Origin: a virus
Taxonomy: Duplodnaviria; Caudoviricetes
Reading direction: 5' to 3' (one strand)
Virus record (IMG/VR): IMGVR_UViG_3300048583_000290
Span: 1 to 53,938 of that record
DNA: 53,938 nt
Below the pieces are notes generated by a model. It made no database searches and was not told the origin of the DNA. It saw only the letters and a list, made by a program, of their open reading frames with translations. The stretch's first letter is position 1. Each line of letters starts with the position of its first letter. A program made the position numbers and the translations under genes. This document shows, one piece after another, positions 8,077-51,763 of this stretch.

Positions 8077-8208
8077 TCCTTGTCTCAGCGCCCCGCTTCG
8101 CGCCTCGCGCCCGCCCCTCGCTACCGCCGCCGCGCCGGTTAGAACATGTTTTAAGCGCGTCTAGGGCCTTCCCCGCTACCTACCCCCAGCCGCCCGCTTC
8201 CGGCGCTC

Positions 8209-8508
8209 CTAGCCCCGTTCCGCCCGTTCCTTAAACATATCCCTTTTTGCGCTTTCCAGCAGCAGCATTTCGGCGCTATGCTGCCACGGCTTGCGGCGGC
8301 GCGTCATCGTATATTCAAATTCGGCCACCGACAGCTTTCGTTGAACGAGGTCAATCAATCCCTTGTCCTCTGCCATCAACAGCAGATTGCGGGAGCTTCG
8401 CATGTCCGCAGACAGCAGTGCGTCAACCGCAAAGAACCCTCGGTGATATGTTTTCGTCTGGCGCGGCTCAGCCGCAGCAATCCAGTTTGCTATCTCACGC
8501 AATGTCAT
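8209..8508 (-). CDS. Hypothetical protein
   Basis: YHRGF..D / G.I.LVQRK...FEY pattern recalled from alphaproteobacterial phage proteins. Confidence 0.65.
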   Translation of the reverse strand: MTLREIANWIAAAEPRQTKTYHRGFFAVDALLSADMRSSRNLLLMAEDKGLIDLVQRKLSVAEFEYTMTRRRKPWQHSAEMLLLESAKRDMFKERAERG

Positions 8509-8551
8509 ACATCTTCCCAAAAGCAGCTTAGGCGTCACCTCAACGCACAAT

Positions 8552-8636
8552 CAAGTAACGCCGAAGTAACGCCTAAGTATTCGCGTCAGATTACGGTGAG
8601 CGCCTAAGTAATCAGCCGCTCACCGTAAGTAACGGC
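8552..8636. repeat. AAGTAA(CG) repeats around a 12-bp inverted repeat
   Basis: Five AAGTA(A) copies; TTACGGTGAGCG/CGCTCACCGTAA stem. Confidence 0.7.
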
Positions 8637-8637
8637 A

Positions 8638-9465: not shown

Positions 9466-9473
9466 TGCTTAGC

Positions 9474-9977
9474 TCACTTTCCTGCTTTGATTACCGCCTC
9501 AACGAATGGGAATATGGAGAAGCAGTCGGGCGGCAACTGCTCTCCATTTTCAATCCGCTCCCTCGCCCATGATTTGAGGGTCATCGGATGAACTGTTGTC
9601 TTGCCTTCGCACTCATAGCCCAAACCGGCCAGCTTCTCTGCGGCCTCGGTTGCGCGTTCGCGGTCTGTTCCGGCAAAGATGAGTTTCAGCTCTGTGCGGA
9701 CGATGCCGCCAAAGCCGTTAGCATCGAGGAACGCAACGGCCCCTTCATTGTCAACGATTGATGCTGTGCACTGATTGCGCAGGTCGATGGTCGTGCCGTC
9801 ATCGAGCTTGATTTTGGTGACGCCGACCTCATCCATAATCTCCGGGATGCGCTCGCGGGTCAGCGTTTTCAGGGCGTTAGCCGCCGCCTCTGCTTCTTCT
9901 TGAAGCATTGTCAGCTTGGATTTCAGCGCAGACGCCTCATCGACCGCCGTGCGCAGACGGTCTTTCAAGTCACTCAT
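9474..9977 (-). CDS. Conserved replication-module protein
   Basis: N-terminal coiled coil, IPEIMDE.G and VHPMTLKSW motifs; lies upstream of the SSB. Confidence 0.7.
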   Translation of the reverse strand: MSDLKDRLRTAVDEASALKSKLTMLQEEAEAAANALKTLTRERIPEIMDEVGVTKIKLDDGTTIDLRNQCTASIVDNEGAVAFLDANGFGGIVRTELKLIFAGTDRERATEAAEKLAGLGYECEGKTTVHPMTLKSWARERIENGEQLPPDCFSIFPFVEAVIKAGK

Positions 9978-10639: not shown

Positions 10640-10649
10640 TGCAATCCCC

Positions 10650-11257: not shown

Positions 11258-11258
11258 T

Positions 11259-11502: not shown

Positions 11503-11754
11503 TTATTTTTTTGACGGCAGCCAATGTGTCGGTGGCGGAAAGCTGTAGCGCCGGTCTTCATTCAGCCACCTTGGCGTGTCGGCATATGCGATGTCTGCCG
11601 GGCCGTTTTCATCGTCATGCCGCATCGGTGAATCATCGCTGTTAATGTTCCAGACCGCCCAACCTTCGGCAATCTTCTGCCTTCGATGAACGCGCTTCAC
11701 CCACTGGCGGCTGCCATCCTTCGGTGCCTCGGCAATCGGTCGCCAATCAGCCAT
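11503..11754 (-). CDS. DUF551-like hypothetical protein
   Basis: WRPIAEAPKDG...PTHWLP signature. Confidence 0.7.
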   Translation of the reverse strand: MADWRPIAEAPKDGSRQWVKRVHRRQKIAEGWAVWNINSDDSPMRHDDENGPADIAYADTPRWLNEDRRYSFPPPTHWLPSKK

Positions 11755-11941
11755 CGTTCTTCTCCAACCTGTTTTGAATTCGCACCAAAGCACCGCGTGC
11801 GATGACGGCGCAAATGTGCGCATCAGGCGGGTCGTGCGGCTCTGGGTGGCCGATTGCGTTTAGTGAAATCTTGGCCTCTGCCAAAGCCCCTTCCAGCCGC
11901 GCAATTCGGGCATTGAGAAGTTCAAGGTGTCGCATAGTCAC
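11747..11941 (-). CDS. Hypothetical protein
   Basis: Coupled ORF, coiled coil. Confidence 0.55.
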   Translation of the reverse strand: MTMRHLELLNARIARLEGALAEAKISLNAIGHPEPHDPPDAHICAVIARGALVRIQNRLEKNDG

Positions 11942-13088: not shown

Positions 13089-13288
13089 TATCCCAAGTCT
13101 CCATTCTGGGCGGACAATTCTTCTTCCAGCGCCGGCAGGATGAGGTTGACACAGTGGTCATAACCCTTCATATAATCCTCTGCCAGCAGGCAACTTCCCT
13201 CGGCGGCATACACGCCGGCATCGCCGTAATGCTTCTGAAGCTCGGAATGGACATCCTGCTTTGCGCGTTCTTCTGGTGATTCAGTCAT
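13088..13288 (-). CDS. Hypothetical protein
   Basis: AGGAG RBS, TAATG coupling. Confidence 0.6.
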   Translation of the reverse strand: MTESPEERAKQDVHSELQKHYGDAGVYAAEGSCLLAEDYMKGYDHCVNLILPALEEELSAQNGDLG

Positions 13289-13421
13289 GAACGTCACTCC
13301 TGTCAAAGCCAACTTGAACGACGGTGCCAAACTGCCAGTATTGCGGGAAGTTGATGCGCACCCAGAAGCGCCAGGCATAGGCTTCCCATGCCGTTGCGCC
13401 GCGAAATGCTCCCCACTTCAC
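13281..13421 (-). CDS. Small Trp-rich hypothetical protein (46 aa; not in ORF track)
   Basis: GTGA coupling; fills the gap in the operon. Confidence 0.45.
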   Translation of the reverse strand: MKWGAFRGATAWEAYAWRFWVRINFPQYWQFGTVVQVGFDRSDVHD

Positions 13422-13861
13422 AGCAGATGCTCCAGTAAGGTGATGGCATTATGCTGATTTTCGGCATCGAGCCGCGCTCGCTTCTTCCGCCAGCTTCTGG
13501 CGCGCAAAGATAAGATTTGGCCAACAACTATTTGCGCTTCATCAACATTGAGTTCAACGCTGCGGTATTTTGGCAAGCCTGGCATCCCGATGCTCAACTT
13601 GAGATGCTTCAGCTTGTGGACGCTGAAGCTGATTTCAAGGCTTGCATCAGAGCGCTCATTGAAAAGCGAAACTTCAATCACGCGCGACTTGTCAGCTATC
13701 TTCAGCTCAAATGAGCAGCGCGACGATGCTTCAATATATTTGTCTGCTGCCGGCAAGCTGGCAATCTGAATCGCAAGCAAATTTGCGAAAATAGATGTTG
13801 GAGTTGGCAGATTTGCTTCTGCCATCGCGTCTGATACTGGACGCCTTTTCCAGAATTTCAC
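13418..13861 (-). CDS. Hypothetical protein
   Basis: GTGA coupling with the upstream gene. Confidence 0.55.
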   Translation of the reverse strand: MKFWKRRPVSDAMAEANLPTPTSIFANLLAIQIASLPAADKYIEASSRCSFELKIADKSRVIEVSLFNERSDASLEISFSVHKLKHLKLSIGMPGLPKYRSVELNVDEAQIVVGQILSLRARSWRKKRARLDAENQHNAITLLEHLL

Positions 13862-14555: not shown

Positions 14556-14612
14556 GGCAACACCGCGCCGCCTTGACAACCCCTTTTAGGCGCTCCGCTT
14601 TGAGCGGCAAAG
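14556..14612 (-). promoter_or_regulatory. Early promoter plus GCGGU leader hairpin
   Basis: TTGCCG-N16-TAAAAG, then GGCGGC-GCGGT-GTTGCC. Confidence 0.65.
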
Positions 14613-14793
14613 CGTTTTTAGTGAATAACTCAAAAATAGTTTGGTCAAACGTCCGCCTTCGCTATCGGTCGGGCCTAGCCGCGCCCCTTGATATATCGAG
14701 CGGGAACAAGCCCCTAGCGCCTCGCGCGCCTTCCGGCCCCTAACCCCTAGCCTATCGGTCGCGGCGCTCTAGCCCGCCTTCTAGGCCGCTTTA

Positions 14794-15282
14794 TCACCAT
14801 TGCCCGAATTGCGGCACAGCGCGTCCACCCCAGGTCGGCAATCGCTTATCTGTTGACCAGCGGCGCGCCAAATATGCGCGATAGGCTTCATGGACTGGCA
14901 GATGCGTGAAGTCCAGCTTATGCTCGCCGTTGCGCGCTGAGTTCTGGAAAGACGTTGGGCGGTCGCCGCAAATCGAGTTGAGAACTTCATCATTGATGGT
15001 CGAAAGCATATCTTCAATCGGTCCAGCGCAGGCGTGGACGCGGCCATATCTGACGAAATAGATGTCGCACAAAGCCATACCGTGCCGCCACAGCCAAGCA
15101 GCATTGGCCCGCGTTGCACAAGCCCAAATCGCACACGGATGGTTCTGGTGCGTCGGCTTGTATGGCCCGTTGACCGCCATACTGAGCAGCTGCGCCGTCT
15201 CCAGAATCATCTTGATGACGCGCTTGTCATCGAGCGCCTGTGCCGATGCCACTGGGCAATCTGATGTCGCAAAGATGTTCAT
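14794..15282 (-). CDS. Pyrimidine-dimer DNA glycosylase / endonuclease V family protein
   Basis: MNIF...A..LDDKRV.KMILE.AQLLS...THQNHPC..W signature. Confidence 0.8.
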   Translation of the reverse strand: MNIFATSDCPVASAQALDDKRVIKMILETAQLLSMAVNGPYKPTHQNHPCAIWACATRANAAWLWRHGMALCDIYFVRYGRVHACAGPIEDMLSTINDEVLNSICGDRPTSFQNSARNGEHKLDFTHLPVHEAYRAYLARRWSTDKRLPTWGGRAVPQFGQW

Positions 15283-16152: not shown

Positions 16153-16404
16153 TTATTCTGCGGCTCGCCATTGCCGACCGTCGAGCCAGAGCTGACTGTC
16201 GCCATCAATCCAGACAACAATGATTTCATCGCCGGCAAGCCATCGCCAACCGATGCCGAAAAATCCAGCGATGGTTTTCGTCACGCTGTCGAGAGCCTCA
16301 TCTGCCATCTTTTCATCTGGCTTGAGCCGCGCATAGAGATTGTCGCAGGCGATGACGAACGCCTTTTCTGCCTGCGACTGGGCCTGGGTTGGAACGGCGC
16401 TCAT
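16153..16404 (-). CDS. Hypothetical protein
   Basis: ATGA coupling. Confidence 0.6.
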   Translation of the reverse strand: MSAVPTQAQSQAEKAFVIACDNLYARLKPDEKMADEALDSVTKTIAGFFGIGWRWLAGDEIIVVWIDGDSQLWLDGRQWRAAE

Positions 16405-16718
16405 CCTTGGGTGTTCTTCGCGCATTCGATTGCGATTGCAACCATGTCTTGATAATAATCACCGCGTATGAAATCAGCAGCACTTTCATAGCAGCAGCCA
16501 CCGAGATAATCTTCACCGAGCGTAATGCCGTCTTTTTTGGCTGCCACGCGAGCGGTGAACCACATCAAAGTCCCGTTCGCAATTCTATTGAAAATTTCTT
16601 GGTCTGCTTCTGGATTTCCGCTGCAAAAATGCTCAGCAGGGTCAGTATTTTCCGGCCCAAATTCAAGAACAATTTCAAAGCCTTCGCGGCTTTCCGTGTG
16701 AGCAACGTCCCAAGACAT
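16401..16718 (-). CDS. Hypothetical early protein
   Basis: GAAGGA RBS; LGEDYLGGCCY. Confidence 0.7.
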   Translation of the reverse strand: MSWDVAHTESREGFEIVLEFGPENTDPAEHFCSGNPEADQEIFNRIANGTLMWFTARVAAKKDGITLGEDYLGGCCYESAADFIRGDYYQDMVAIAIECAKNTQG

Positions 16719-16737
16719 TTCAAATCCTTCCGCGTCT

Positions 16738-16793
16738 GACGGCACCGCGCCGCCCGAACACCTTTCTTCTAGGCGATAGGAAATGCTAAGCAA
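16738..16793 (-). promoter_or_regulatory. Early promoter plus GCGGU leader hairpin
   Basis: TTGCTT-N16-TAGAAG, then GGCGGC-GCGGT-GCCGTC. Confidence 0.65.
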
Positions 16794-16812
16794 ACAGTTT
16801 TTATTGATGCGT

Positions 16813-17040
16813 TCAAACTCTATCGCGCAGCCCATTATTGATGGCCGTTCGCAGCTTGTCCATCTGGTCAGCCGACTGCGGCGCATTGATAATCGCTCGG
16901 CATTCACGGAGTGCTGTAATCAACTGCGCTATTCGCTGGTCTTTGACCGCCATTTTGCCTTGCAGCATCGACAATGATGCGTTCGCGGCAATAAGCTCTG
17001 AACGCGCCCGCATTTCATTTTCGTTGGGCTCACTCCGCAT
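16813..17040 (-). CDS. Hypothetical coiled-coil protein
   Basis: GAGG RBS. Confidence 0.55.
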   Translation of the reverse strand: MRSEPNENEMRARSELIAANASLSMLQGKMAVKDQRIAQLITALRECRAIINAPQSADQMDKLRTAINNGLRDRV

Positions 17041-17824: not shown

Positions 17825-18008
17825 TTTCGGAAACATTGGACTTCCCTTTCTTCAAATCTGCTGCGTATTTGATGAGCGCCTCGAACACTGCCGGTTCAAG
17901 AGCGATGACGCGATTGGCGTGATGATTTGCGGCCAGCCAAATCTGATAGCCATCAAAACTGGCATAGACGCCGTCACCAAGATATTGTTGCCGTTCGTCG
18001 GGCATCAC
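17814..18008 (-). CDS. Hypothetical protein
   Basis: YLGDGVYA.FDGYQIWL...IALEP motif recalled from small phage proteins. Confidence 0.75.
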   Translation of the reverse strand: MMPDERQQYLGDGVYASFDGYQIWLAANHHANRVIALEPAVFEALIKYAADLKKGKSNVSENAG

Positions 18009-18187
18009 TGCTGGCCTGGCAGCGGGGTGAGCTGGTCTGCGCAGAGCTTCAGCCCCGGCAACGGCAACTTGTAAATGCTGCCGCGAGCGACTTCAATGAA
18101 ATCGCCCCAACCGGTGTCGCGCGCTTCAACGCAGAGAAGTCTCTCATCCTCTTGCGTAACGATGAAATCGCCTGCTTTGATGTTCAT
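18005..18187 (-). CDS. Hypothetical early protein
   Basis: GAAGGA RBS. Confidence 0.6.
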   Translation of the reverse strand: MNIKAGDFIVTQEDERLLCVEARDTGWGDFIEVARGSIYKLPLPGLKLCADQLTPLPGQQ

Positions 18188-18207
18188 TTCTGTTCCTTCT
18201 GGTCATT

Positions 18208-18260
18208 CAGCACCGCGCTGTTCGATAGCCTCTTATCCGCTATTTTTAATGATAGGCAAA
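18208..18260 (-). promoter_or_regulatory. Early promoter plus GCGGU leader hairpin
   Basis: TTGCCT...GATAAG, then CAGC-GCGGT-GCTG. Confidence 0.6.
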
Positions 18261-18341
18261 GCGTTTTTATTGCCCCGTCTCGCCCCTTCGCTATCCCTCG
18301 CGCCTAGCGTAACCCTCTGATTTCCCTCGTTTAGACAAGCC

Positions 18342-18701
18342 CTAAGCCCCTCGCGGCCCCTTCCGGGGCGATACCCGCGTCCCGGCGCTCGCGGCGCTTA
18401 GGGGGTGTTCTAGGCGGCCATCAGCGAGCTTGTCGAGCAATTCTTCAACCAGCACGTCCAAATCGGTGAGCCGCAGCAGCGAGCCTTTGGCCCTCAACTT
18501 TGCGGCTTCCATCAGCGCGGCGGCGAAAAGGTGGGCGCTCTTGTCTGCGTCCTCGATTTCATCTTCAAGCGCAGACACAGGGTCTTCAAAAAATTCTATG
18601 AACTCTCCCATAACGGTGCCGCCGCGCGCGTTGTTGACGACAATGGCCATCAACTGGCCGTTCCAGTAAATTTCATCGCCGATGAGTTGGGGCGCGGCCA
18701 T
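18342..18701 (-). CDS. Hypothetical protein
   Basis: TGATG coupling. Confidence 0.6.
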   Translation of the reverse strand: MAAPQLIGDEIYWNGQLMAIVVNNARGGTVMGEFIEFFEDPVSALEDEIEDADKSAHLFAAALMEAAKLRAKGSLLRLTDLDVLVEELLDKLADGRLEHPLSAASAGTRVSPRKGPRGA

Positions 18702-19702
18702 CAGTAAACAACCGCCGTGCGTCCGCGCAAATCGCCCATTTCTTCACTGCCCCTTTCATGAGCGTTAATCCAACGACGCCACATGACGTTTCCTTCAAAC
18801 TCGACACGCTCCCAATTGAGGGCGTTCGGTTGGCGCCGCAGGTAGCGGTAATGACCGCGCACATCATGGAGCCGTTTGCGCGCAGCATCCCTACAAGCAT
18901 TAAAAACAAATCGCTCATAGCTTGCGACTTTTTTGGGCACGCGCATCGTGATGTATTCAGGCACAGCTGCGCGGCGCGTGACGCCGTGAACAATCTTGCG
19001 ACCTGTCACATCGGACTGGATGCGCTCTGCCGGGCCGTTGAGCAGCGCCAAAAAGCTGATGACGTGGCGGGCGATGCCAGACGTTTCCTTGATGGTCTGC
19101 TGGAGCAACTTCACTTCGCGGTCATCGTGCGAGTTGACTGTTGAAATGCACATAATCTTGTTGCGCATCGGCTTCATGAACTTGGCAGTCTCTCGCTGCG
19201 TTGGCGCGTGTGTATAGCCCCAGCAACTGGCGTCATATTCCGGGCTGCCAATCGGGTGGCGACCGTCTTTGACGCGATACATCGCCTCGTCAACAACAAC
19301 GTCATTGTCGCCCGTTGATATCAGATATTTGAGAGGCCAAAGCAGGACTTTGCCGCTGCCGCGCACCGGGCCGATGCTGTCGATGACCTGAAATTGAAAC
19401 AGGTCGTCTGCCACCTTGGTGATGAGGGCACCGGATGTATCGACTTCATCGCCTTGGTGGCGCGACCCGCCGAATGACTCGCGGTATGAACCCATATTGT
19501 ATTCAATGAATATTTCGTCATACGGAAGGTGCGCCATTTTGCGCAACTCGTTCATCCGCTCCGGCAAGTTGGTGCGCAGAGCCGCCAGAGCCGCAAGCCC
19601 GCTGTCCCGGATGACAAATTTCTTGGCGCGGCTGACTGCCGGCGCTACATTCATCTTGAATGCGTATGACGCTGGGTGCGATGCAAGGTCAGCCAAAAGC
19701 AT
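18701..19702 (-). CDS. Phage protein of unknown function
   Basis: AGGAG RBS; C-terminal RLHDVRGHYR...WINAHERG motif. Confidence 0.75.
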   Translation of the reverse strand: MLLADLASHPASYAFKMNVAPAVSRAKKFVIRDSGLAALAALRTNLPERMNELRKMAHLPYDEIFIEYNMGSYRESFGGSRHQGDEVDTSGALITKVADDLFQFQVIDSIGPVRGSGKVLLWPLKYLISTGDNDVVVDEAMYRVKDGRHPIGSPEYDASCWGYTHAPTQRETAKFMKPMRNKIMCISTVNSHDDREVKLLQQTIKETSGIARHVISFLALLNGPAERIQSDVTGRKIVHGVTRRAAVPEYITMRVPKKVASYERFVFNACRDAARKRLHDVRGHYRYLRRQPNALNWERVEFEGNVMWRRWINAHERGSEEMGDLRGRTAVVY

Positions 19703-19831
19703 TGTGCGCTCCTGCAAAAAGGTGCCCGGCTTTATGAGCCGCCAGCCGGGCATGGCGTCGGTTGTGCAGCAACAACTTCAACGGCAGCAGGGAAGGATTC
19801 ACCACTCTCTGCCTCAGTCGCTGCTGCGCGC

Positions 19832-20672: not shown

Positions 20673-20734
20673 CTGGAAACGACACCGCGTCGCCTCCAGT
20701 CCCTCGCTTATCGGCCCTTTTTCTTGCGAAGCAA
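20673..20734 (-). promoter_or_regulatory. Early promoter plus GCGGU leader hairpin
   Basis: TTGCTT...GATAAG, then CTGGAGGCGAC-GCGGT-GTCGTTTCCAG. Confidence 0.7.
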
Positions 20735-20853
20735 ACAGGTTTTATTGATAGACTCAAAAATTTCTTTGATAGGCGGTCGTTTTTCTTGTCTAAACGCTTG
20801 CTCTGCGTCGTGGCCGCCGCCCCGCCCTATAGAGACGGCCACGCGCCGAACAA

Positions 20854-23650: not shown

Positions 23651-26427
23651 TATTTGAACATCTCATCGTTGGTCAAGCACTTGACTTTTTCAACGCTGAA
23701 CATACCGAATTGGGCGAGCCATTTGCCGCGAACCAATAGCCAGTCCTCACCCGGCTTGGCGCGGTCAGCAATCTTGACCCCGGTGCTGAGCCAATCGCGG
23801 CGATTGATGCGCAGAAGGGCTGGCTTGCTGACAGAGTCATCAACGCAGTGAACGTCGGCAAAGAGCGTCTGGCCTTTCATCACGTTGCCGCGCCGATTGA
23901 TGCGGACAGCTTCATTCTCATCCCGCCTATCGACACGTTCGACCCGGCAAATGACGACCGCACTTTCCATATCTGCCAGTTCGCCAAATTCTTTGATGCG
24001 GCCCCTTATATTGTATTCGGCAGGGTTGTCATACATATGCTGCCAACGGGTGTGCGCGGGCCGCAGGTCGGCAAACTTGATTGTTGCGTTGGCAATCTGC
24101 TCCAGTTGTTTGGCGGTCAGCGTTCCGGTGTCGCGTGCCTCGCGCAGTTTCGCGGCTTTGACGTCACCGACGCCGACCATGTTCTTGAAGCCGCCAATAA
24201 TCTTGGTGTCGGTCGCAACCCAATCATCGCTGCTCAACTCCAAGCTGAACGGGATAACTTCAATGCCTTCCGCTGCCAGCTCACGCAACGTCTCGATGGT
24301 CTGCTCATCGTCTTTTGCGGCCCGCAGCAGAGCCGCAGCAAACTTGAGTGGGTGGTGAGCTTTGAGCCACATCGTCCAGTATGCGATGATTGCATAGCTG
24401 ACCGTGTGCGATTTGTTCATCCCCCACGCACCGAAGGTCACCAAAGACTTCCACAGGGCGGCGGCTGATTGCTCTTCAATTCCATTCTCTGCGGCACCGG
24501 CCATGAATGCCTTGCCCTTGGTGTTGAAGTATTCCGGGCCTTTGCTGCCGCTCATTGCCTTGCGAATTTCAGAAACTTCCGCCCAGCCCATCTTTCCGAT
24601 TTCAAAGCAGATGCGCATCACCTGCTCTTGATAGATGACGACGCCCTGCGTTTCGCCCAAATACTCTTTCATCGATGGATGAACATACACCACAGGCTCT
24701 TTGCCGTTGAGGCGCTGCATGTAAGTATTGGTCGCACCGCCAGCCATCGGCCCCGGTCGCGCCAAAGCGGTCACGTGGTCGATTTGACTAAACCTGTCAT
24801 AGTGCATCTGGGCGCTGACGCGGCGCTGCGATTTGCCTTCAAACTGGAAGATGCCGGCAAATCGCTGGACATTGAGGATGTCAAAGGCCGCAACTTCATC
24901 GAGCGGCAACCGATACAGCTCTTCAGCGGTCACGACCCCGGCATCTTCGATGACGCCAAGAGTGCGCAATCCGAGAACGTCAATCTTGAGCAAGTCCAGA
25001 TGCCCGGACATTTCCTTGTCAACGTGAGCAACGCCATCACGCACGGTGCAATATTGGGTTATCAAAGTTTCAGACACCAGCAAGCCAGCTGCGTGAACCG
25101 ATGTGTGGCTTGGATGCCCTTCAAGGTCGGCCATCACCCTCGCCTCTGGGAACAGCTTTGCGAATTTGCGGCCATTTTCTGTTTCATTCAGAGTGTCCTC
25201 AAGCCCCTTGCCATAGCGTGAGTCGCCCGATGAATGCTCAATCAGAACGTCTGCGACAGCATAGGTATCTTTGGCCGGGATGCCCATCTTTTTGCCAACG
25301 TGGTTGAGCACCGACCGACTTTGAAGGCGGCTGATGTTGCCGAGGCGCGCAACATTGTCTTTGCCATACTTTTCTGCCATATAGTCAAAAACCATATAGC
25401 GATGTTGGTCGCTGAAGTCGATGTCAATATCAGGCAAATCGCTGCGCGTCACGTCGATGAAGCGTTCAAACAGGAGATTGTGAACGAGCGGGTCAACTTC
25501 CGTTATGCGAGCCAGATAGCAGACAAGGCTGCCGGCAGACGAGCCGCGCGCTGGGCCAACAATCATCCGCTCTTTGGCCCAGCGCACCATATCGCCGACG
25601 ACCAAAAAGTAGCTTTCATAAGCCTTCTGGGCAATCACATCCATTTCGCGTTGAAGGCGAGCTTCATACGCTGGCGTCCATTCCTTGATATGCCCTGCTT
25701 CTAGCCGATATGCCTGACCGACACGGACTTCATCCCAAAGGTTGCCCGGCACCGATATGATTGGGGCTTTGGCGAGGCGCTGGCCGCGCAATCGTTCGCC
25801 AATTTCCTGCGTATGGCCTACAGCAAAGTCCCACTGCTTGTCAGTCAAAAACCAATAGGCGGAACGCAATTCATCCATGTTGAGAACGTGCTGCGGCGTC
25901 ATCCGTTTGTTGTCATCCCACGCCAGATATTTGAACTTATCCGCTGCCGTTGGATAGTCATTCGTTGGGGCCAGAACGAGCGGCTTGCCTGTTGATTCAG
26001 AAAGGCCGATTGCGTGGCGTGCCATCAACCGCGAGTGAATGTCAATATCAACGTAATCAAAGTGGGCCGGGTCGGTTAGGGCCGCGCCCGCGAAAACGAT
26101 AGTCCCGGCGCGCGACGTTAGCCGCTCCGGGCCGAAAGGAACCGCCGACGATAGGAGATAGCCCGCCCGCGTATCGGTCGCTATAGCCCACGCTAGGGGC
26201 TTCCGTTCGTCATTTTCGTTAGGGAAGCTAAAAGTGAAACCAAAACCCGGTTCGATGCCGACCTTGAGGCAAGCGATTTCATGAGGAACGTGCCCCCAAG
26301 TGCCATCATCGTCAACTAGGGCAACGGCGGTGTATCCGGCATCCTTAGCTGCGCTCGCAAGCGCGTGTGGTGTGCCAAATGCTTTGCGGAAACTATATCC
26401 AGAACGGCCACGCAATAACGGTATCAA
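23650..26427 (-). CDS. dnaE: DNA polymerase III alpha-like (family C), degenerate PHP domain
   Basis: GPARGSSAGSLVCY, LLFERF, catalytic PDIDID, HAAG, LLKIDVLGL, MNKSH..SY. Confidence 0.95.
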   Translation of the reverse strand: MIPLLRGRSGYSFRKAFGTPHALASAAKDAGYTAVALVDDDGTWGHVPHEIACLKVGIEPGFGFTFSFPNENDERKPLAWAIATDTRAGYLLSSAVPFGPERLTSRAGTIVFAGAALTDPAHFDYVDIDIHSRLMARHAIGLSESTGKPLVLAPTNDYPTAADKFKYLAWDDNKRMTPQHVLNMDELRSAYWFLTDKQWDFAVGHTQEIGERLRGQRLAKAPIISVPGNLWDEVRVGQAYRLEAGHIKEWTPAYEARLQREMDVIAQKAYESYFLVVGDMVRWAKERMIVGPARGSSAGSLVCYLARITEVDPLVHNLLFERFIDVTRSDLPDIDIDFSDQHRYMVFDYMAEKYGKDNVARLGNISRLQSRSVLNHVGKKMGIPAKDTYAVADVLIEHSSGDSRYGKGLEDTLNETENGRKFAKLFPEARVMADLEGHPSHTSVHAAGLLVSETLITQYCTVRDGVAHVDKEMSGHLDLLKIDVLGLRTLGVIEDAGVVTAEELYRLPLDEVAAFDILNVQRFAGIFQFEGKSQRRVSAQMHYDRFSQIDHVTALARPGPMAGGATNTYMQRLNGKEPVVYVHPSMKEYLGETQGVVIYQEQVMRICFEIGKMGWAEVSEIRKAMSGSKGPEYFNTKGKAFMAGAAENGIEEQSAAALWKSLVTFGAWGMNKSHTVSYAIIAYWTMWLKAHHPLKFAAALLRAAKDDEQTIETLRELAAEGIEVIPFSLELSSDDWVATDTKIIGGFKNMVGVGDVKAAKLREARDTGTLTAKQLEQIANATIKFADLRPAHTRWQHMYDNPAEYNIRGRIKEFGELADMESAVVICRVERVDRRDENEAVRINRRGNVMKGQTLFADVHCVDDSVSKPALLRINRRDWLSTGVKIADRAKPGEDWLLVRGKWLAQFGMFSVEKVKCLTNDEMFK

Positions 26428-27705: not shown

Positions 27706-28512
27706 TTACTCCGCACGCAGAAGGTCGATGGCCTTGGCAATGTCCCAGCCATCGCCGCTGCCGGTGGTGATGCCGATGCGATTGGCGACCGCTTCCAGCA
27801 TCTTGATGGCCTTTTCATTCTTCGGTTCAAAGAAGATTTCGGCCCACGGCCAGACATCGATGACAGCCTGCCGCATTTGCGCGATGATGTCGGCATATTC
27901 GCCCTGCGTCCGCAATGACGACCGCGCAACGACGAGGTCAGCAAAGGCGCGCAGATTGTATTTGGCGACCAAATTGCAGTGGATGTTCATCGGCAGGATG
28001 CCGCGCGCATCTTCGCGGCTCGCCCCATCAGCGACCAATTCTGCATATTCGGCGATGGCGCCGGTGGCCTGGTCTGCAAACAGCTCGAAATGCGATTGCT
28101 CTTTCATCGGGTTATAGACGCTCGATGAAGAAACGTCAACGACGCGCTGCGACTGCATCGCATAGCTGCCGGTGCGTGTTCGCGTTATTTGCTGGGCGCA
28201 GGCGCGGCTCACCTTGCGGATGAGAAATGTCACGTCAACAAATTCCCAGCTGCTGCGGATGGTCGCAGCCATCAGCGCCAGTTCATCGAGCTTCTTCTGC
28301 TCCGGCCAGTGCGTGATTGAAAGCAAACCGCCCATATCCATTTCGAGCCGCGTCTGCTTGGTGAAGATGAGAAGGTCTGCGGCGTGCCATTTCTGGTCGA
28401 TGCGCCCGGCACCTGTGAAGTCCATCAGATAGACTTCAACATCGGTTTTGCGCTCAAGAGCCGCCAGCGCCGGGTCGTTGTTGCCGTCAATCAGGCTGAG
28501 TTGCGTATTCAC
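27706..28512 (-). CDS. thyX: Divergent flavin-dependent thymidylate synthase-like protein
   Basis: SWEF..TF.I..VSR..QQITRTR..SYAMQSQR, EDARGILP, NLRAF; canonical RHR and SxRY motifs are altered. Confidence 0.8.
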   Translation of the reverse strand: MNTQLSLIDGNNDPALAALERKTDVEVYLMDFTGAGRIDQKWHAADLLIFTKQTRLEMDMGGLLSITHWPEQKKLDELALMAATIRSSWEFVDVTFLIRKVSRACAQQITRTRTGSYAMQSQRVVDVSSSSVYNPMKEQSHFELFADQATGAIAEYAELVADGASREDARGILPMNIHCNLVAKYNLRAFADLVVARSSLRTQGEYADIIAQMRQAVIDVWPWAEIFFEPKNEKAIKMLEAVANRIGITTGSGDGWDIAKAIDLLRAE

Positions 28513-31117: not shown

Positions 31118-31130
31118 TATCAAGCGTTTA
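31118..31130 (+). promoter_or_regulatory. IHF consensus between divergent units
   Basis: TATCAAGCGTTTA matches WATCAANNNNTTR. Confidence 0.45.
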
Positions 31131-31313
31131 GACAAGCGATACCCGGCGGCATGTAATAAACGGCTTATCGGATGAAATCGGGCGGCTTATCATTCGTTTT
31201 TAATGGTCTAAGCACTAAAACCGCTTCCCGTCGCATTCCTTTTCGGCTAGAGAGGGAAGGCGCTAGGGGAGCATGCAAATCCTTTACCGCGTTCACATGT
31301 GAAAGGAAACACA

Positions 31314-31940
31314 ATGATTCGTTCTCTGTTCAGTATCGGTGCGCTCGTCGCACTGGCGATGGCCGCGCCCGCGTCCGCCGGTGTCTTCACCGTCACCGCC
31401 GGCACCATTGCCCCCATCGCCGGTTCCGGCAATGACTTCACCAGCGACCTGGCCGGTCTGGGCCTCGGTGTGAAGGAACTCCAGAACTCGACCGTCAGCT
31501 ACACCGGCGGTGCCTACAAGGTCGAACTGCTCGGCTATGAAAACGGCTTCACCGACAGCTTCTCGGTCGATGGCGGCGTGACGCAGCTCGGCACTTCTTG
31601 GTCGGGCTTTGCCAATCTGTTCGCATCGCCGCTGCTGCTCGGTGTGTCGAACGCATCGCCGTCGAAGTGGCTGTTCAAGTCGGCACAGGCTGGTCTCGGT
31701 GTCGTCGGCACCAATGCCTTCTCGCTGTTCGGCCCTGCCGGCACGATGACCGGCGATGTCTTCCAGTCGCGCACGCTGTATGTCGGCTTCAATGACGGCG
31801 GCGGCGATGGCGACCACGACGATGGCATCCTGCGCATTTCGGCGGTGCCGGAACCGGCATCGTGGATGACGATGATTGCGGGCTTCGGTCTGGTCGGCTT
31901 CGGGATGCGCCGTCGCACCGCCAAGACCGTCGCAGCCTAA
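31314..31940 (+). CDS. PEP-CTERM (PEPxxW type) sorting-domain surface protein
   Basis: Signal peptide ending APASA; C-terminal VPEPASWMTMIAGFGLVGFGMRRR; AAGGA RBS. Confidence 0.92.
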   Translation: MIRSLFSIGALVALAMAAPASAGVFTVTAGTIAPIAGSGNDFTSDLAGLGLGVKELQNSTVSYTGGAYKVELLGYENGFTDSFSVDGGVTQLGTSWSGFANLFASPLLLGVSNASPSKWLFKSAQAGLGVVGTNAFSLFGPAGTMTGDVFQSRTLYVGFNDGGGDGDHDDGILRISAVPEPASWMTMIAGFGLVGFGMRRRTAKTVAA

Positions 31941-31960
31941 CCTACAACGTCGCCGGAATT

Positions 31961-31994
31961 GGGCCGCCAGAGCAATCTGGCGGCCCTTTTCTTT
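31961..31994 (+). terminator. Intrinsic terminator between convergent PEP-CTERM and holin genes
   Basis: GGGCCGCCAGA-GCAA-TCTGGCGGCCC followed by TTTTCTTT. Confidence 0.85.
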
Positions 31995-31996
31995 GC

Positions 31997-32206
31997 CTAT
32001 TCTGCATCGTCCCGCTTCAGGCCGCGCGTAAGCAGAGCAAACACAGTCCCAAGCCCTTCCCGCAACCACATACCGATGACGAGGCCCAGAGCTTCGCCGT
32101 CAATCTGCTTGTAGAAAACGAGCCATGATGTTAGCACAAAAGCCATCACCAGCACCGTGTAGGTGAGAATTGTGTTTGACCAGAAACGGTGCTTGGGCGT
32201 GCTCAT
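31997..32206 (-). CDS. Putative holin
   Basis: 69 aa, two hydrophobic segments, charged tail, coupled to the endolysin. Confidence 0.6.
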   Translation of the reverse strand: MSTPKHRFWSNTILTYTVLVMAFVLTSWLVFYKQIDGEALGLVIGMWLREGLGTVFALLTRGLKRDDAE

Positions 32207-41418: not shown

Positions 41419-41807
41419 AGCGCAAATCTCCCGAAGCTCTGAATGCCATAGCCCTTTGCAAAATCCGCCTTCCGTTCTGCGACCACGCCGCGCCCTGCCG
41501 ACGCATGCAAATAGCGCCCGGCAAAAAGGATGCCGACATGCTTGGTGCGCTGGCCGCGCACGCTGGCAATTACGATATGCGCGTCTTGCTCTTCGCACTC
41601 AAAAAAGGCCGTGCCCGCTTGTTCGCGTAAGAGGATTAGAGAAGCCCTAAGCCCGCCCGCGCGACCCGCTAGGGCCGGGATAGACAAGCCGAGAACGTCT
41701 CTAGCCCACGCTACGGCTAAACCCCAGCAATCGACCCCGCCGCGCTCCGAGCCGCCTAGGCGGTAGGGCGTTCCAATCCATTCATTTGCAAACTCTGCGC
41801 CGGTCAT
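41415..41807 (-). CDS. NlpC/P60 tail-associated protein (gpK-like)
   Basis: IGTPY..GG....GVDCWGL...HVGI....YLHA. Confidence 0.88.
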   Translation of the reverse strand: MTGAEFANEWIGTPYRLGGSERGGVDCWGLAVAWARDVLGLSIPALAGRAGGLRASLILLREQAGTAFFECEEQDAHIVIASVRGQRTKHVGILFAGRYLHASAGRGVVAERKADFAKGYGIQSFGRFAL

Positions 41808-48431: not shown

Positions 48432-49852
48432 CAGCGGACAAGCCCCAGTTTCTTGAGAGCGTCAACAACGGCCAATTCAGTTTGCATCTTGATGAAAGGC
48501 GCCAAAGCATCGAGGGGGACGCCGAACATTTCGCCATCTTCGCGCAAAAAGGTCATCCTGTTCTCGGCGATTGTCACATCGACAACTGCTGGCGCTGGAA
48601 GGCCAATGTCGCCTTTATCGCCTTTGTCGCCCTTGTTGCCCTTTTCGCCGCGCTTGGCGAACATGCGGGCCTTGCCGCCGATGACGAGAAATGCCGTTCC
48701 ATCATCAATGAAGAAGTCACCATCTTCATAGGCTTCACCTTCGCGCTTGACGCCCTTCCAACCAAAGCCAGAAGTGCCGAGCCGCGCCCAATCATCGCCG
48801 CCGCCGCCCGGTGCATCCACCGTGTCGCGCAACGCTTTGGCATAGCGACCAAGGTCATATTGGACAATCGAGCCTTCGCGGTAAATGCCAGGTTCCCACT
48901 GCTTGACGATGATGCCGACGCCGGGTTCGCCGTCATCGCCCTTGTCGCCTTTTTCTGGGTAGCGCGATGCCAATTCTGCAAACGTGACCGCATCCGCTTC
49001 AAGGCCAGCGCGGATTAGCTGAATGTCGCTCTTGATGCTTGAAGCACTGGCCTCGATTGCGCTTTTGGTTTCCTCGATGGCTGCGAAGGCGTTGGCCAGC
49101 TGCGGTGCAAGCGCAGCGTGCTGCTCTTCAAGCGCCGTCAATGCAGCTCCGCTCTCCAAAGCTGCAATGTCCTGCTTCGACACCGCATCAAGCAACTTGG
49201 CAACTTCATCGCTGAATGCCGAAAGCCGCGCCGAATGTTCTGCTGCAGCTGCCGAGCGTTCGCCTTCGACAGAAAGCAACTTGGCTTCAAAAGCGGATTG
49301 AAGCGTGGTCAGCTTTTCTGCAAAGTGCGTCTGGACAAACTTGGCTGCCGACGCAGCGGCTTCTTCAAAAGCATTGAGCTTGAGCGCAAAGCCTGCCAAA
49401 TCGCCGTCGATTGCACTTTTGAGTTCGCCAATCTCCGATACGATGCGCGAGCCGAGCAGCGTGTCTGCGGTTTCGGTCGCAGACTTCAAATCTTCAATCC
49501 AGCCGAGCAGTTCAGTGCGCGTCGTTTCAAAAGTCCCGATGTGCGTGGACAAAGCCTCGGTGGTAGCCAAATCTGCAAGCCGCGCCTGCAAATCCGACAA
49601 GCGCGACTTGATGCCGGCTGTTTCCGCCAGAGCTTCCGCAACACCAGAAGCGACACCGCGCAAATCCGCCTTCAGCGATGCCGTTGCAGCATCGACCGTG
49701 GCTGTAAGCTCATCGTTTTTGCTCGAAAACGCGCTTTCAGCATTCTTTATTTGTTCGGCGAGCAAGGCTAGTCCGCCGCTAGTCCGCCCGCGCTCGCTCA
49801 GCAGCGTTTCACCGACAGAGTCAGCAATCGCTTTGATGAGGTTTTCGTTCAC
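48431..49852 (-). CDS. Coiled-coil plus collagen-like virion protein
   Basis: About 300-aa heptad region, GXY runs (GDKGDDGEPG; GEKGNKGDKGDKGDIG), W.PG.Y..G..V motif. Confidence 0.7.
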   Translation of the reverse strand: MNENLIKAIADSVGETLLSERGRTSGGLALLAEQIKNAESAFSSKNDELTATVDAATASLKADLRGVASGVAEALAETAGIKSRLSDLQARLADLATTEALSTHIGTFETTRTELLGWIEDLKSATETADTLLGSRIVSEIGELKSAIDGDLAGFALKLNAFEEAAASAAKFVQTHFAEKLTTLQSAFEAKLLSVEGERSAAAAEHSARLSAFSDEVAKLLDAVSKQDIAALESGAALTALEEQHAALAPQLANAFAAIEETKSAIEASASSIKSDIQLIRAGLEADAVTFAELASRYPEKGDKGDDGEPGVGIIVKQWEPGIYREGSIVQYDLGRYAKALRDTVDAPGGGGDDWARLGTSGFGWKGVKREGEAYEDGDFFIDDGTAFLVIGGKARMFAKRGEKGNKGDKGDKGDIGLPAPAVVDVTIAENRMTFLREDGEMFGVPLDALAPFIKMQTELAVVDALKKLGLVR

Positions 49853-51234
49853 GCCTTGACCTTCATCGCAAGGAATTTGTTCATCAGCGCCTTGACGTCA
49901 TCCGGCGATGGCTCAGGCTCATCTGTAACTGGCGGCGCAGCTGGCGGCGCAGCGTTGGCAGCGACTTTGGCCAACTCATTGTCGAGAATTTCGTTGATGC
50001 GGTTGACCGGCACCATCTGGCGCTGAAGAAATGCGCTGTTGCCACCGGGCGTTGGGCCATAGCCCTCTTTGCCGCGAGCTTCATCGGGCGTGAACAAGCC
50101 GCCCTGAACAGCTTTGGTGAGGGCTTCGATGCGCTTTTCAAAGCTGGTGCGGAGCAACGCTGTCGTGTCAAGCTCGATGTAATCGGTGCCGGAAAGGCCA
50201 AACAGCGCGTCAAATGTGCGCTCTGTGTGCTCCAAATAGCTTCCAAGACTGATGCTCAGCCAATGGCTGATGAGAGCTTCAGTGTTGGAGTTGGCTGTCT
50301 TGCCGGTGCTGCCGACCAATTCTGGCGGCACGCCATACACGCGGCAAATTTCCTCGATGGACATGCGTTGCGCTTCGACAAGCTGCGCGTCCTGACTGTT
50401 GACTGACAGTTGCTGAAACTTCAACCCGTTGCTGAGGATTGGCATTCCGCCTTGCGCCCACGACTTACTCTGGGCATCGAACGCTTCGCGCAACCGCATC
50501 ATCTGCTCTTTGGTGAGCGACTGTTCAGTTGACAAAATCCCGCTGGCGCGGTTCATCCGATTGAAAAAGGCGTTCTGCGAGGTGCTCAATGCTACGTTGA
50601 TGCCGACCGCCAGAGCCGCAGCTTTGATTGGCGATTCACCGATAAGCGGATGGCGAGGCGTGTGGAATTTCAAGTGAATGACATCACGCGCCGGGACGAT
50701 GAATGACGGGTCTGTTCCTGCCAGCTGGTTGCTGCCGAAGGCATAGTAAATGGAGCCATCTTCAGCAATGCGAACGCTTGTCGATGTGTTTGCCATCGGA
50801 TGAATGGCGTTCACTTCATTGCGGTCGTTGCGCGTGGCAAAGGCGAACGCCTCACCTTCAAACAATGCGGTGGCAATCATGTTCAGCAGGAAGCCGGGTG
50901 TCGTTTGATAGCTGTTTGGCCGGTTCATCACACGGAACGCAGCGGAGTTCGTCACTTGCTCGTATGAATTTCCAGTCTTGCGAACGTGAAGTGGGTAGCA
51001 CTGCGATGTTGCGCGAGCGATGCTCATCACGCAAGCATAAGCGGTCGGCACATGCCGCGCGGTCATCCCGTTGACAAAGAGATTGCGCTGCCAGCCATCT
51101 TCCAGTTCGCCCATCTGGAACATGTTGCCATTCTCGCCCATTCCATTGAACGGGCCGCGCCACGAGCCTTCGCTTGACACCAAACCTTTGATGGTCTGCT
51201 GAACCCTAGCAATGAATGAAGGTGCGCTCGCCAT
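49849..51234 (-). CDS. Portal protein (HK97 family)
   Basis: RPN.YQT, DVIH.K, G.SPI, DAQLVE, EEICRVYGVPP, TPDEAR. Confidence 0.95.
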   Translation of the reverse strand: MASAPSFIARVQQTIKGLVSSEGSWRGPFNGMGENGNMFQMGELEDGWQRNLFVNGMTARHVPTAYACVMSIARATSQCYPLHVRKTGNSYEQVTNSAAFRVMNRPNSYQTTPGFLLNMIATALFEGEAFAFATRNDRNEVNAIHPMANTSTSVRIAEDGSIYYAFGSNQLAGTDPSFIVPARDVIHLKFHTPRHPLIGESPIKAAALAVGINVALSTSQNAFFNRMNRASGILSTEQSLTKEQMMRLREAFDAQSKSWAQGGMPILSNGLKFQQLSVNSQDAQLVEAQRMSIEEICRVYGVPPELVGSTGKTANSNTEALISHWLSISLGSYLEHTERTFDALFGLSGTDYIELDTTALLRTSFEKRIEALTKAVQGGLFTPDEARGKEGYGPTPGGNSAFLQRQMVPVNRINEILDNELAKVAANAAPPAAPPVTDEPEPSPDDVKALMNKFLAMKVKA

Positions 51235-51244
51235 CAGGCGTCCT

Positions 51245-51763
51245 TTACTTGGCGGGCTTTGTCACTTTGGCTGGGGGCGGCGTAGGGGCGGCGCTAGGGG
51301 CCGCGACCGGGGCGGCTGGGGTAGGGGCCGCGACCGGGGCCGCGACCGCGTTAGGGGGTGTCGTCGGGGCGGCGGCGCGCGGGGCCGGGGCCGGGGCGAT
51401 AACCGGCACTGATTGCGCAAGCGGATTGTAGTTGTAGTTTTCAACAACCCAATCCTTCTTTGCCTGAAGCGGCACCGTTGCCCATGCATCTGGGCGGCAA
51501 GGCAGATTGGCCTCGTGCGCTTGAACCCAAGCGTCAAGGTCATACACATTCAGGCCGGCAATTTCAGCCTTGAGCACTTCTTCAGGGTCTGGTTCGGGGT
51601 CGGGTTCAGGGTCTGGGTCTGGCGGAGTTGGAGCGGGAGAAATGCGCCGGAACACATTGGCCATGAGCCGCGCGATGCTGCCATCTGCAAGGCCAGCCTG
51701 AATATCGGCAAAGGAAATGCGACGCAATCTGCGACCCAAAAATCCTTGTTCAACGATAAACAT
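51245..51763 (-). CDS. Hypothetical Pro/Ala-rich head-module protein
   Basis: AGGAG RBS; PDPEP and PVAAP low-complexity tracts. Confidence 0.65.
   Translation of the reverse strand: MFIVEQGFLGRRLRRISFADIQAGLADGSIARLMANVFRRISPAPTPPDPDPEPDPEPDPEEVLKAEIAGLNVYDLDAWVQAHEANLPCRPDAWATVPLQAKKDWVVENYNYNPLAQSVPVIAPAPAPRAAAPTTPPNAVAAPVAAPTPAAPVAAPSAAPTPPPAKVTKPAK

Follow-up and report, generated by a model that had tools for sequence, protein, structure and literature searches.

The DNA analysed here, hereafter the window, is the complete record of a tailed virus (IMG/VR record IMGVR_UViG_3300048583_000290; Duplodnaviria, Caudoviricetes). It comprises 53,938 bp with a terminal overlap of about 112 bases, and dispersed along it are islands of roughly 130 bp in which the base-pair steps CA and TG are nearly absent. 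Almost all genes of the window are carried on the minus strand. Pfam and PHROG scans revealed a siphovirus-like structural module (capsid, prohead protease, portal, tail tube, DUF1833, NlpC/P60 and J-like proteins) and an M15 endolysin, and a replication and nucleotide module comprises DnaE, a DnaQ-like exonuclease, ThyX, a MazG-like protein, a HAD phosphatase, an SNF2 helicase, a ligase, a RepB-type primase and a DUF5906 helicase. An HNH gene, a large terminase gene and a weak candidate for the small terminase gene (1925–2485) are present as well. The closest DnaE proteins found among 5.8 billion sequences are 53–59% identical to that of the window; cultured phages, including Xanthomonas phage Carpasina and Pbunavirus, are distant matches.

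Census of the CA/TG-free islands

Taken together, CA and TG occur every 6.7 bp on average in this genome, with an observed/expected ratio of 1.2. Islands were called by merging 120-bp windows that contain at most four CA/TG steps, the genome mean being 17.8 per window. This yielded seven regions (3423–3594, 8082–8247, 14632–14809, 18251–18421, 26041–26255, 41601–41773 and 51264–51413). No such region arose in any of 200 dinucleotide-preserving shuffles; their minimum per window was 6.9 on average, and no CA/TG-free run exceeded 81 bp. The longest CA/TG-free runs of the phage measure 126 bp (26063–26189), 88 bp (14707–14795), 70 bp (18336–18406) and 65 bp (41620–41685).

A first-pass annotation, made from the sequence alone, had described stretches of about 120–150 bp nearly without CA/TG and had listed six of them. 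All six are real, and coordinates and counts hold: three CA/TG steps in 8088–8235, for which no count had been given, two in 14648–14794, two in 18273–18405, none in 26065–26188, four in 41622–41773 and two in 51274–51406. What had been overlooked is a seventh island, a 10-bp tandem array at 3455–3588. Two further regions, near 20.8 and 31.1 kb, had been described as weaker, and they are indeed moderately depleted (7.5 and 7.8 CA/TG per 100 bp, respectively, versus 14.8). In sliding-window dinucleotide counts the depletion holds against both shuffled and codon-resampled controls. Thus, the presence of CA/TG-free islands is a robust and unusual observation. A full-text literature search found no description of CA/TG-free islands in phage DNA, which is not proof of their absence from the literature.

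The islands are 124–152 bp long and the array 134 bp. Their G+C content ranges from 0.66 to 0.85 as compared with 0.56 for the genome, and TpA steps reach 2.4–6.7 times the local expectation within them versus 0.42 genome-wide. The total of pyrimidine–purine steps is kept; arithmetic from the counts indicates that about one third of the lost CA/TG steps reappear as TpA and about two thirds as CpG. TC steps are not avoided within the islands. As the record was assembled from a metagenome, one might suspect an artefact of assembly or sequencing. This explanation can practically be dismissed: reading frames are respected, TG is retained in Trp and Cys codons, and the encoded proteins align with their families across the islands, none of which random error or chimerism would produce.

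Location of the islands

The array at 3455–3588 is situated between the HNH and terminase genes and is made up of the 10-bp unit CCCTAGGCGG, repeated about 13 times (Tandem Repeats Finder: period 10, 13.4 copies). It has no more than four CA/TG per 120 bp and one TpA step per 10 bp, with a TpA resultant of 0.95 at period 9.9. On the minus strand, about 45 nt downstream of the array, we read the extended −10-like element TGTATAAT (3390–3397), which may be part of a promoter; it has no −35 element at a distance of 16–18 nt and was hence missed by a consensus promoter scan.

The intergenic island at 8088–8235, with a TpA observed/expected ratio of 2.84, lies in the gap that separates the end of a 113-aa gene from the RepB-type primase gene, and it stops 12 nt short of the start of the latter (8076). 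Part of its few CA/TG steps is held by a 16-bp near-palindrome, TTAGAACATGTTTTAA (8139–8154), just upstream of the primase-helicase genes.

The islands at 14648–14794 and 18273–18405 are paralogues. The former is intergenic and starts at the stop codon of a pyrimidine-dimer glycosylase-like gene; its match to the two-copy profile (nhmmer E 1.9e-42) is a self-match by construction. The latter covers the final 21 codons of a 119-aa gene and about 70 nt of spacer. After both islands the alignment shows a conserved minus-strand block, TTTGCC-N17-(T/G)A(A/T)AAG, which resembles a promoter and may function as one. Just downstream of the 14.7-kb island it reads TTTGCC-N17-TAAAAG (approximately 14583–14611) and overlaps a hairpin at 14596–14614; after the 18.3-kb island it reads TTTGCC-N17-GATAAG (about 18232–18260). 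The same block, here as TTTGCT-N17-GATAAG, also follows the weaker intergenic region at 20697–20840. The other weaker intergenic region, 31073–31272, contains CTAG words and an exact CGGCCCTAG at 31105–31113, and its CA/TG density refers to the gap 30961–31292.

The remaining islands lie within minus-strand genes. The dnaE island (26065–26188) spans codons 88–129 of the open reading frame (ORF), is entirely free of CA/TG and includes the exact array word CGGCCCTAA at 26076–26084; no promoter-like site comes after it. The NlpC/P60 island (41622–41773) spans codons 12–62. Three of its four CA/TG steps are forced by Trp and Cys codons, an exact CGGCCCTAG occurs at 41669–41677, and it shares a 26-nt match with the 18.3-kb island. 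The island at 51274–51406 encodes the Pro/Ala-rich C-terminal tail of the product of a gene (51245–51958) upstream of the portal gene and is built of the 12-bp repeat GCTAGGGGCGGC.

Structured RNA does not account for these elements. Compared with shuffled sequences, the folding z-scores of the six islands (+0.85, −0.68, +0.37, +0.47, −0.26 and +2.23) reveal no exceptional fold, and Rfam gave no match inside any island at E ≤ 1. A G-quadruplex motif as the common feature was rejected as well, regular-expression matches being confined to the array, to the 41.7- and 51.3-kb islands and to three places unrelated to the islands. The repetitive extragenic palindromic sequences of enterobacteria and the mosaic elements composed of them (REP/BIME) are palindromic, G+C-rich units of 35–40 bp found at operon ends, and some of them bind gyrase. 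The islands likewise constitute a G+C-rich dispersed family at operon ends; they differ from REP/BIME by their unexceptional folding (z −0.7 to +2.2), which gives no sign of a stable imperfect palindrome of that type, and by the location of some of them in genes.

Codon choice within coding islands

CA/TG exclusion in the coding islands is independent of the protein sequence. This was assessed with a codon-aware control of 300 synonymous resamplings from the phage's own codon usage, applied to 49 chosen minus-strand ORFs (12,574 windows). In the dnaE gene, positions 26077–26196 hold one CA/TG where 14.8 are expected (z −4.9); the corresponding figures are 5 versus 15.6 for NlpC/P60 (41619–41738; z −4.8) and 2 versus 14.8 for 51287–51406 (z −4.3). 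After these three windows the next lowest z is −2.4, against a background of +0.9 with a standard deviation of 1.0.

Homology and Pfam agree with the first-pass assignment of dnaE and NlpC/P60 as genes that contain islands. Both islands encode residues typical of their families, including the region of the catalytic Cys in NlpC/P60, and are not insertions. In this they differ from Rickettsia palindromic elements, which are in-frame repeats inside genes and with which they share the property of being dispersed elements within coding regions. A switch to rare codons inside genes, also noted at first pass, is evident from CTA, which accounts for 4% of the Leu codons genome-wide but for four of five in the dnaE island. 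The accompanying notion that intragenic islands arise by synonymous recoding applies to dnaE and NlpC/P60; it is not needed for the 51.3-kb island, where a 12-bp tandem repeat codes for the Pro/Ala-rich tail. A constraint at the DNA level that overrides codon bias is nonetheless supported, both by the position of dnaE and NlpC/P60 as outliers under synonymous resampling and by the paralogous islands, which gained no CA/TG (see below).

Exclusion of CA/TG is the primary feature, and high G+C, CpG and TpA are its consequences, because a model that bars CA/TG wherever the encoded residue permits, and otherwise takes codons from genome usage, reproduces the composition of the dnaE island (expected and observed G+C, 0.68 and 0.69; CpG, 23.1 and 23; TpA, 6.8 and 8). 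NTA codons alone are somewhat more frequent than in this exclusion-only model (4 versus 1.1, P 0.013; 6 versus 2.1, P 0.011). The dnaE island furthermore specifies Gly and Val at two DnaE positions (residues 85 and 107, numbered as in the comparison with relatives) that are mostly Phe (63 of 72) and Arg (58 of 72), respectively, in the relatives. Both replacements are non-conservative, and neither is required for CA/TG avoidance. It seems that the DNA-level pressure, or the event that created this island, overrode protein conservation.

Paralogous islands, shared words and origin

The two paralogous islands differ at 56 of 156 aligned positions, and no CA/TG was gained in the course of this divergence. 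Each row of the alignment has six CA/TG steps, some of them in the flanks, whereas random substitution with the same spectrum would lead to 15.1 ± 3.0 (P 0.0016). This purifying pattern favours selection rather than mutation.

The islands also share a vocabulary. Oligomers of 6–8 nt common to the intergenic islands are more abundant in the dnaE island (P 0.005–0.036) and in the NlpC/P60 island (P 0.013–0.020) than in CA/TG-minimal recodings of the same proteins. The word CGGCCCTAR has ten exact copies genome-wide, seven of them in the array, with a single copy in each of the dnaE, NlpC/P60 and 31.1-kb islands; with at most one mismatch this word, which was picked after seeing the array, occurs in six of the seven islands (null mean 1.8, P 0.003). 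The shared cores reported at first pass, CGCTAGGG/CCCTAGCG and TGAT-N13-ACAAGCCC, are present. In single-motif searches that allowed mismatches, TTAGACAAGC, CCCTAGGCGG and GGCGGGCTW were no commoner than in shuffles. The islands look like one family of elements.

Dinucleotide-defined islands are known from the footprints of repeat-induced point mutation (RIP) and from the CpG islands of vertebrates. The RIP indices of the islands are in fact in the range of such footprints, with TpA/ApT at 1.6–8 versus 0.35 for the genome and (CpA+TpG)/(ApC+GpT) at 0–0.36 versus 1.58. By contrast, G+C is higher in the islands than in the genome (66–85% versus 56%), about two thirds of their lost steps reappear as CpG, and unique coding DNA is hit with the amino acids preserved. 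The gain in G+C and CpG, the involvement of unique coding DNA and the preserved amino acids therefore argue for selection and not for a deaminating mutator. A deaminase-type mutator as the cause is unlikely because the islands exceed the genome in G+C, transitions go in both directions and the coding sense is kept. Mutation of CpA to TpA of the RIP type was accordingly rejected: there is no loss of G+C relative to the genome, and the dnaE and NlpC/P60 islands are unique sequence, not duplicated DNA.

Alternatively, the islands might be a non-adaptive by-product of repeats. Slippage would have made CA/TG-free repeats of 10 and 12 bp, template switching or short-patch gene conversion would have spread their words, and selection would do no more than keep the proteins working. 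Two islands are tandem repeats and two are paralogues, the islands have words in common with the array and are labile in evolution, and Gly and Val at conserved Phe and Arg positions in the dnaE island look like collateral damage, all of which is compatible with this model. However, the dnaE and NlpC/P60 islands share short words only and no contiguous donor tract. Conversion leaves unexplained how 56 differences accumulated between the paralogues without a new CA/TG, and the loss of every avoidable CA/TG from the dnaE island is not accounted for either. We therefore give this model little credence.

Relatives and other viral contigs

Position-wise CA/TG minima along dnaE in 60 relatives show a mild dip only, which is explained by amino-acid content. 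Among 80 dnaE-bearing viral loci, 13 are poor in CA/TG (L084, L049, L040, L014, L078, L015/L016, L022–L024, L073, L013 and L077). Their genome-wide CA/TG observed/expected ratios are 0.67–0.92, with CpG up to 1.55, TpA up to 1.09 and a patchier distribution. When five of these loci were pooled and compared with 12 normal ones, every trinucleotide containing CA or TG was depleted, CTAG was enriched 3.55-fold, and CA and TG were about equally depleted on the dnaE-coding strand. None of the gene families seen in the sampled loci distinguishes these 13 relatives from the rest, save for families private to one near-identical group. Some DnaE relatives (P0025, P0087, P0098, P0100, P0105 and P0117) are about 250 residues longer and contain an intein-type domain (PF14890) that the DnaE of the window does not have.

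Genomes of this kind, with CA/TG low and CpG, TpA and CTAG raised, could have served as donors from which patches were recombined into the phage. CTAG-rich coding at the orthologous dnaE position of L040 fits with such an import, as does, weakly, the finding that a close relative is strongly different inside the dnaE island. Several lines of evidence make import improbable, however. No donor was found in collections from which the closest records may be missing: searches for a close relative or donor led to three distant loci among viral contigs with DnaE, three distant loci in a metagenome scan and two distant matches with short protein fragments, and the island peptides had no match in viral contigs. 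Nucleotide identity of the dnaE island to relatives is at most 0.60 and no better than that of the flanks. The most depleted relative still has 9.7 CA/TG per 120 bp on average, and a 124-bp patch with none is very unlikely to stem from such a donor. Finally, the intergenic islands are internal paralogues.

Run X1, labelled as a microbial-mat metagenome, contains low-depth contigs that are 90–97% identical to the phage. They leave 18005–18671 without cover, one ends at 14619 and there is a loose end at 8337, all beside islands; at this low depth, absence proves nothing. Contigs of the X1 relative, one in each case, skip 526 bases at 13331–13858 and 418 bases at 16404–16823, which looks like presence or absence of small early genes.

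The exact two-unit array occurs in none of the viral contigs searched, and 47 of 2.9 million viral contigs carry five CTAGs at exact 10-bp spacing. The array unit of one of them, G006, is TAGGCCCGCC, one letter from the unit of the window. It is part of a 330-bp CA/TG-poor region with a CA/TG-free run of 218 bp; a gene with a weak match to the large terminase lies about 1.4 kb away. A second contig, G007 (L138; 161 kb), has three dispersed arrays of YTAG-G-rich 10-bp units, 130–160 bp each, within 4 kb (9660–9820, 11655–11800 and 13165–13290). Their units are CTAGCGGGGG, TTAGCGGGGG, and CTAGCTAGGG plus a run of TTAGGGTTG; the same leader, ending in GCATTTACCC, precedes each, and the arrays have a telomere-like look. 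The occurrence of YTAG-G-rich 10-bp arrays in two other viral contigs suggests that the element class is wider than this phage.

Helical phasing, spacing and context

Tests for helical phasing were devised post hoc, after several other ideas had failed. In the six non-array islands, TpA steps are phased at 9.5–11 bp, with a Fisher P of 0.004 against a uniform null and 0.0008 against codon-aware/Markov nulls, while three control period ranges gave P values of 0.95, 0.20 and 0.33. The CA/TG steps that remain, 13 in number, are offset from the TpA phase by about half a turn (mean cosine −0.71 versus −0.12 ± 0.19, P 0.0004; P 0.002 when one paralogue is left out). On the circle the islands are spaced more evenly than random (coefficient of variation 0.48, P 0.05 for the seven islands; P 0.0025 with the weak 31.1-kb region included). 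The geometric support is moderate.

The array and the 14.7- and 18.3-kb islands are located directly upstream of promoter-like sites. This context would suit a function as initiation-free insulators: DNA lacking TG and CA offers no ATG, GTG or TTG start codon, no TTG of a −35 element and no TG of an extended −10 element on either strand, and might shield regulatory regions from spurious translation and transcription. It is in line with this model that the remaining CA/TG steps of the intergenic islands fall in motif-like sites, namely TGAT-N13-ACAAG and the 16-bp near-palindrome. By contrast, an island located 250–390 nt within dnaE and not followed by a promoter-like site is left unexplained, and so are the excess of TpA beyond mere exclusion (seen in the NTA codons at P ~0.01), the shared words and the common length. 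Insulation thus appears to be a very improbable purpose of the islands.

The islands as possible docking or wrapping modules

The reading that we prefer, and regard as possible rather than probable, is that the islands are docking or wrapping modules of about 13 helical turns, maintained by selection at the DNA level for a protein that reads DNA shape. They would represent a single family of DNA modules, about 125–150 bp long and under direct selection. Such selection would purge the CA:TG step and place the leftover A+T in TpA steps, mostly within YTAG or YTAA, amid G+C-rich DNA, and the modules would draw on words found in the 10-bp unit of the array at 3455–3588. The protein or assembly docking there would sense the shape of some 130 bp of DNA and might be host gyrase, RNA polymerase together with upstream DNA, the small terminase or some other phage protein. 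Where spacer exists, the modules would be placed at operon boundaries or just upstream of promoter-like sites; otherwise they would be written into genes via rare synonymous codons and a few amino-acid changes. Binding of a protein, the identity of this protein and a harmful effect of CA:TG steps are what we infer from the pattern.

Dispersed sites along a whole phage genome, in spacers and sometimes in genes, have a precedent in the stoperators of cluster A mycobacteriophages. Stoperators are single asymmetric sites of 13 bp with a strict consensus, found genome-wide in short spacers and sometimes in genes, and recognized by one protein. The island module differs in its length of about 130 bp, in being defined mainly by absence and in having no known cognate protein.

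Gyrase is one candidate reader. A nucleosome-like gyrase wrapping motif of 130 bp is documented, the arms of which have a periodicity of 10.75 bp (PMC6379681, PMC13284261). The lengths of the islands and of the array match its footprint of about 130 bp (PMC6379681). The islands and the strong gyrase site (SGS) of phage Mu or the gyrase motif thus have in common an extent of about 130 bp and, tentatively for the islands, an anisotropic, helically periodic sequence, which at gyrase sites is read indirectly by wrapping. The Mu SGS is a phage genome-architecture signal, as is proposed here for the islands. Gyrase is moreover drawn to the ends of transcribed units, and three islands lie at such ends. 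On the other hand, the gyrase motif is described as a periodicity of G/C, whereas the islands are marked by exclusion of a dinucleotide, the Mu SGS is A+T-rich while the islands are G+C-rich, and a cleavage core was not identified within the islands. The first-pass suggestion of strong gyrase or wrapping sites therefore fares well with respect to length, helically phased TpA and fairly even spacing, and less well with respect to the phasing, which is post hoc and unreplicated in relatives, and to the Mu site, which is not poor in CA/TG.

A number of observations weigh against docking or wrapping modules. Wrapping alone does not demand CA/TG exclusion because the Mu strong gyrase site has 16 CA/TG in 132 bp, at 44% G+C, and we have no physical reason in hand for purging CA:TG but not CpG steps. 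No binding protein was found for the islands. The best TpA period varies by island from 9.7 to 10.65, CpG and GpC steps in the islands have no phase, and TpA phasing is absent from 25 CA/TG-poor windows of relatives (Fisher P 0.70). Conservation of the islands in relatives, the lack of which was named as a ground for refutation in the first-pass annotation, is not seen for dnaE: the island is absent from 72 of 72 relatives, whose orthologous 126 nt hold 6–22 CA/TG. One X1 contig (depth 4.1, possibly containing errors) needs eight single-base indels within 26100–26145 to align. These indels are a weak hint that the dnaE island is a divergence hot spot, and they are unexpected for a strongly selected site unless such sites turn over. 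Finally, the arrays of G007 include some TG.

Possible roles of TG-context DNA modification and host defence

To our knowledge, hypermodification of thymidine in the TG context is the only phage chemistry keyed to TG on both strands. If a bulky base modification, made by the phage or by its host, were present at TG on both strands, the islands might be kept free of TG/CA in order to allow binding of proteins, a model that can be combined with docking modules. It is the sole idea that directly explains why the self-complementary CA/TG pair alone is excluded, and this on both strands. In other phages, thymidine hypermodification is installed preferentially at TG (PMC13458397, PMC6449724), and a flavin enzyme participates in one known hypermodification route (PMC8989533, Table 1). 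Around dnaE, the window has a nucleotide-metabolism cluster consisting of ThyX, the MazG-like protein, the HAD phosphatase and a weak nucleoside 2-deoxyribosyltransferase-like match below the Pfam cut-off. Beside ThyX, a virus-specific protein (phrog_4828; 28509–29429, minus strand) has an Atlas model that aligns to flavin adenine dinucleotide (FAD)-dependent amine-oxidase folds with template-modelling (TM) scores, by query, of 0.76–0.79. Based on this structural likeness, which is a lead only, the protein may be a nucleotide- or DNA-modifying flavoenzyme.

The known marker enzymes, however, are absent from the complete genome. A six-frame search at E ≤ 1 gave no match to the 5-hydroxymethyldeoxyuridine (5-hmdU) DNA kinase (PF18748), the amino-acid:DNA transferase aGPT-Pplase2 (PF18724) or the kinase helical domain (PF18723). 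The same search finds PF18748 in phage M6 (E 1.1e-19), and the families PF18724 and PF18723 are found on M6 gp51 and gp55. Likewise, Pfam scans of 60 ORFs detected no ThyA-type hydroxymethylase (PF00303), DNA methyltransferase, DpdA or Mom. ThyX is encoded (PF02511, E 3.9e-28), which argues for ordinary thymidine. M6, a TG-modifying phage, is free of islands: over the 50,000 bases analysed (of 59,446), its lowest count is 4 per 120 bp and its longest run 79, as compared with 4.1 and 66.8 in shuffles. The TC step, the secondary context in TG-modifying phages, is not avoided in the islands, and the five CA/TG-poor relatives, of which one record is complete, are also without known hypermodification enzymes. 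A TG-free window would be the negative image of the mark of TG-hypermodifying phages; compared with these, the phage studied here is without the three marker families, has ThyX in place of a ThyA-type hydroxymethylase and leaves TC unavoided. The other first-pass option, that of windows kept free of a TG/CA-context modification, can therefore invoke a precedent (PMC13458397, PMC6449724) and at the same time has to contend with missing marker enzymes, the presence of ThyX and an island-free M6. Altogether, we consider it doubtful, although it is the boldest of the rival readings that survive. As a separate observation, the intergenic regions of M6 (L089) at about 3490–3545 and 29650–29680 share the run GGTTAAGGTAAGTAAGTTAAGTAAGTTAAG, followed by simple repeats.

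It is tempting to speculate further that every TG on both strands is modified by enzymes unrelated to the 5-hmdU kinase/transferase pathway, and that the seven modules are hard-wired, unmodified landing pads, one every 4–10 kb, on which gyrase, the machinery of packaging or transcription, or another machine that wraps DNA would settle. The ThyX cluster and the flavin amine-oxidase-like protein may be involved in such TG modification. We consider this bolder model quite unlikely.

Local escape from a host defence that needs a short motif containing TG or CA, such as a nuclease site or a spacer-adjacent motif, would be another way to account for the islands. The partial genome-wide CA/TG depletion in some relatives fits host-driven pressure, and an AcrVA2-like gene (a lead only) indicates that the phage faces defences. 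We know of no defence system that reads only CA/TG. Moreover, escape does not explain why avoidance is complete in windows of 130 bp and absent elsewhere in a genome with CA/TG above expectation. The chance that the islands reflect such an escape is slim indeed.

Other features of the window

Just upstream of the 18.3-kb island, 18701–19753 (minus strand) encodes a 350-aa protein with no sequence match in Pfam, PHROG or PDB. In the ESM Atlas it adjoins AcrVA2-like anti-CRISPR clusters (feature score 0.97; PF26125 on 48% of the members), which is a lead only. A strong hairpin resembling an intrinsic terminator, with ten pairs, nine of them G-C, and a subsequent T-run, is located at 2789–2815 (minus strand) between a 181-aa gene and the small-terminase candidate. 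At 31918–31995 (plus strand), inside or antisense to the ORF 31293–32069, Rfam matches the Bradyrhizobiaceae small RNA BjrC68 with 34.5 bits (gathering score 39; E 3e-05). We take the near-palindrome TTAGAACATGTTTTAA at 8139–8154 to resemble the half-sites of the iron control element of Bradyrhizobium Irr. This likeness and the BjrC68 match are hints that point to a rhizobial-type host. The window has no tRNA genes, its GC-skew profile was uninformative, and a sequence search with three of its unknown proteins gave no match among solved structures.

Implications

If the islands are docking modules, a phage can impose a DNA signal of 130 bp on its essential genes and pays for it in rare codons and non-conservative residues. 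What marks this signal is a missing base-pair step and not a consensus, so it is invisible to motif finders. A scan for CA/TG-free runs combined with a codon-aware null is applicable to all viral contigs. Should the model hold, sites of genome architecture that serve gyrase, packaging or transcription would become testable in uncultivated phages from sequence alone, and in the bolder version the same would apply to context-specific DNA modification. If TG is indeed modified, an epigenetic mark could be read from the genome sequence as a negative image, one strong enough to have recoded dnaE.

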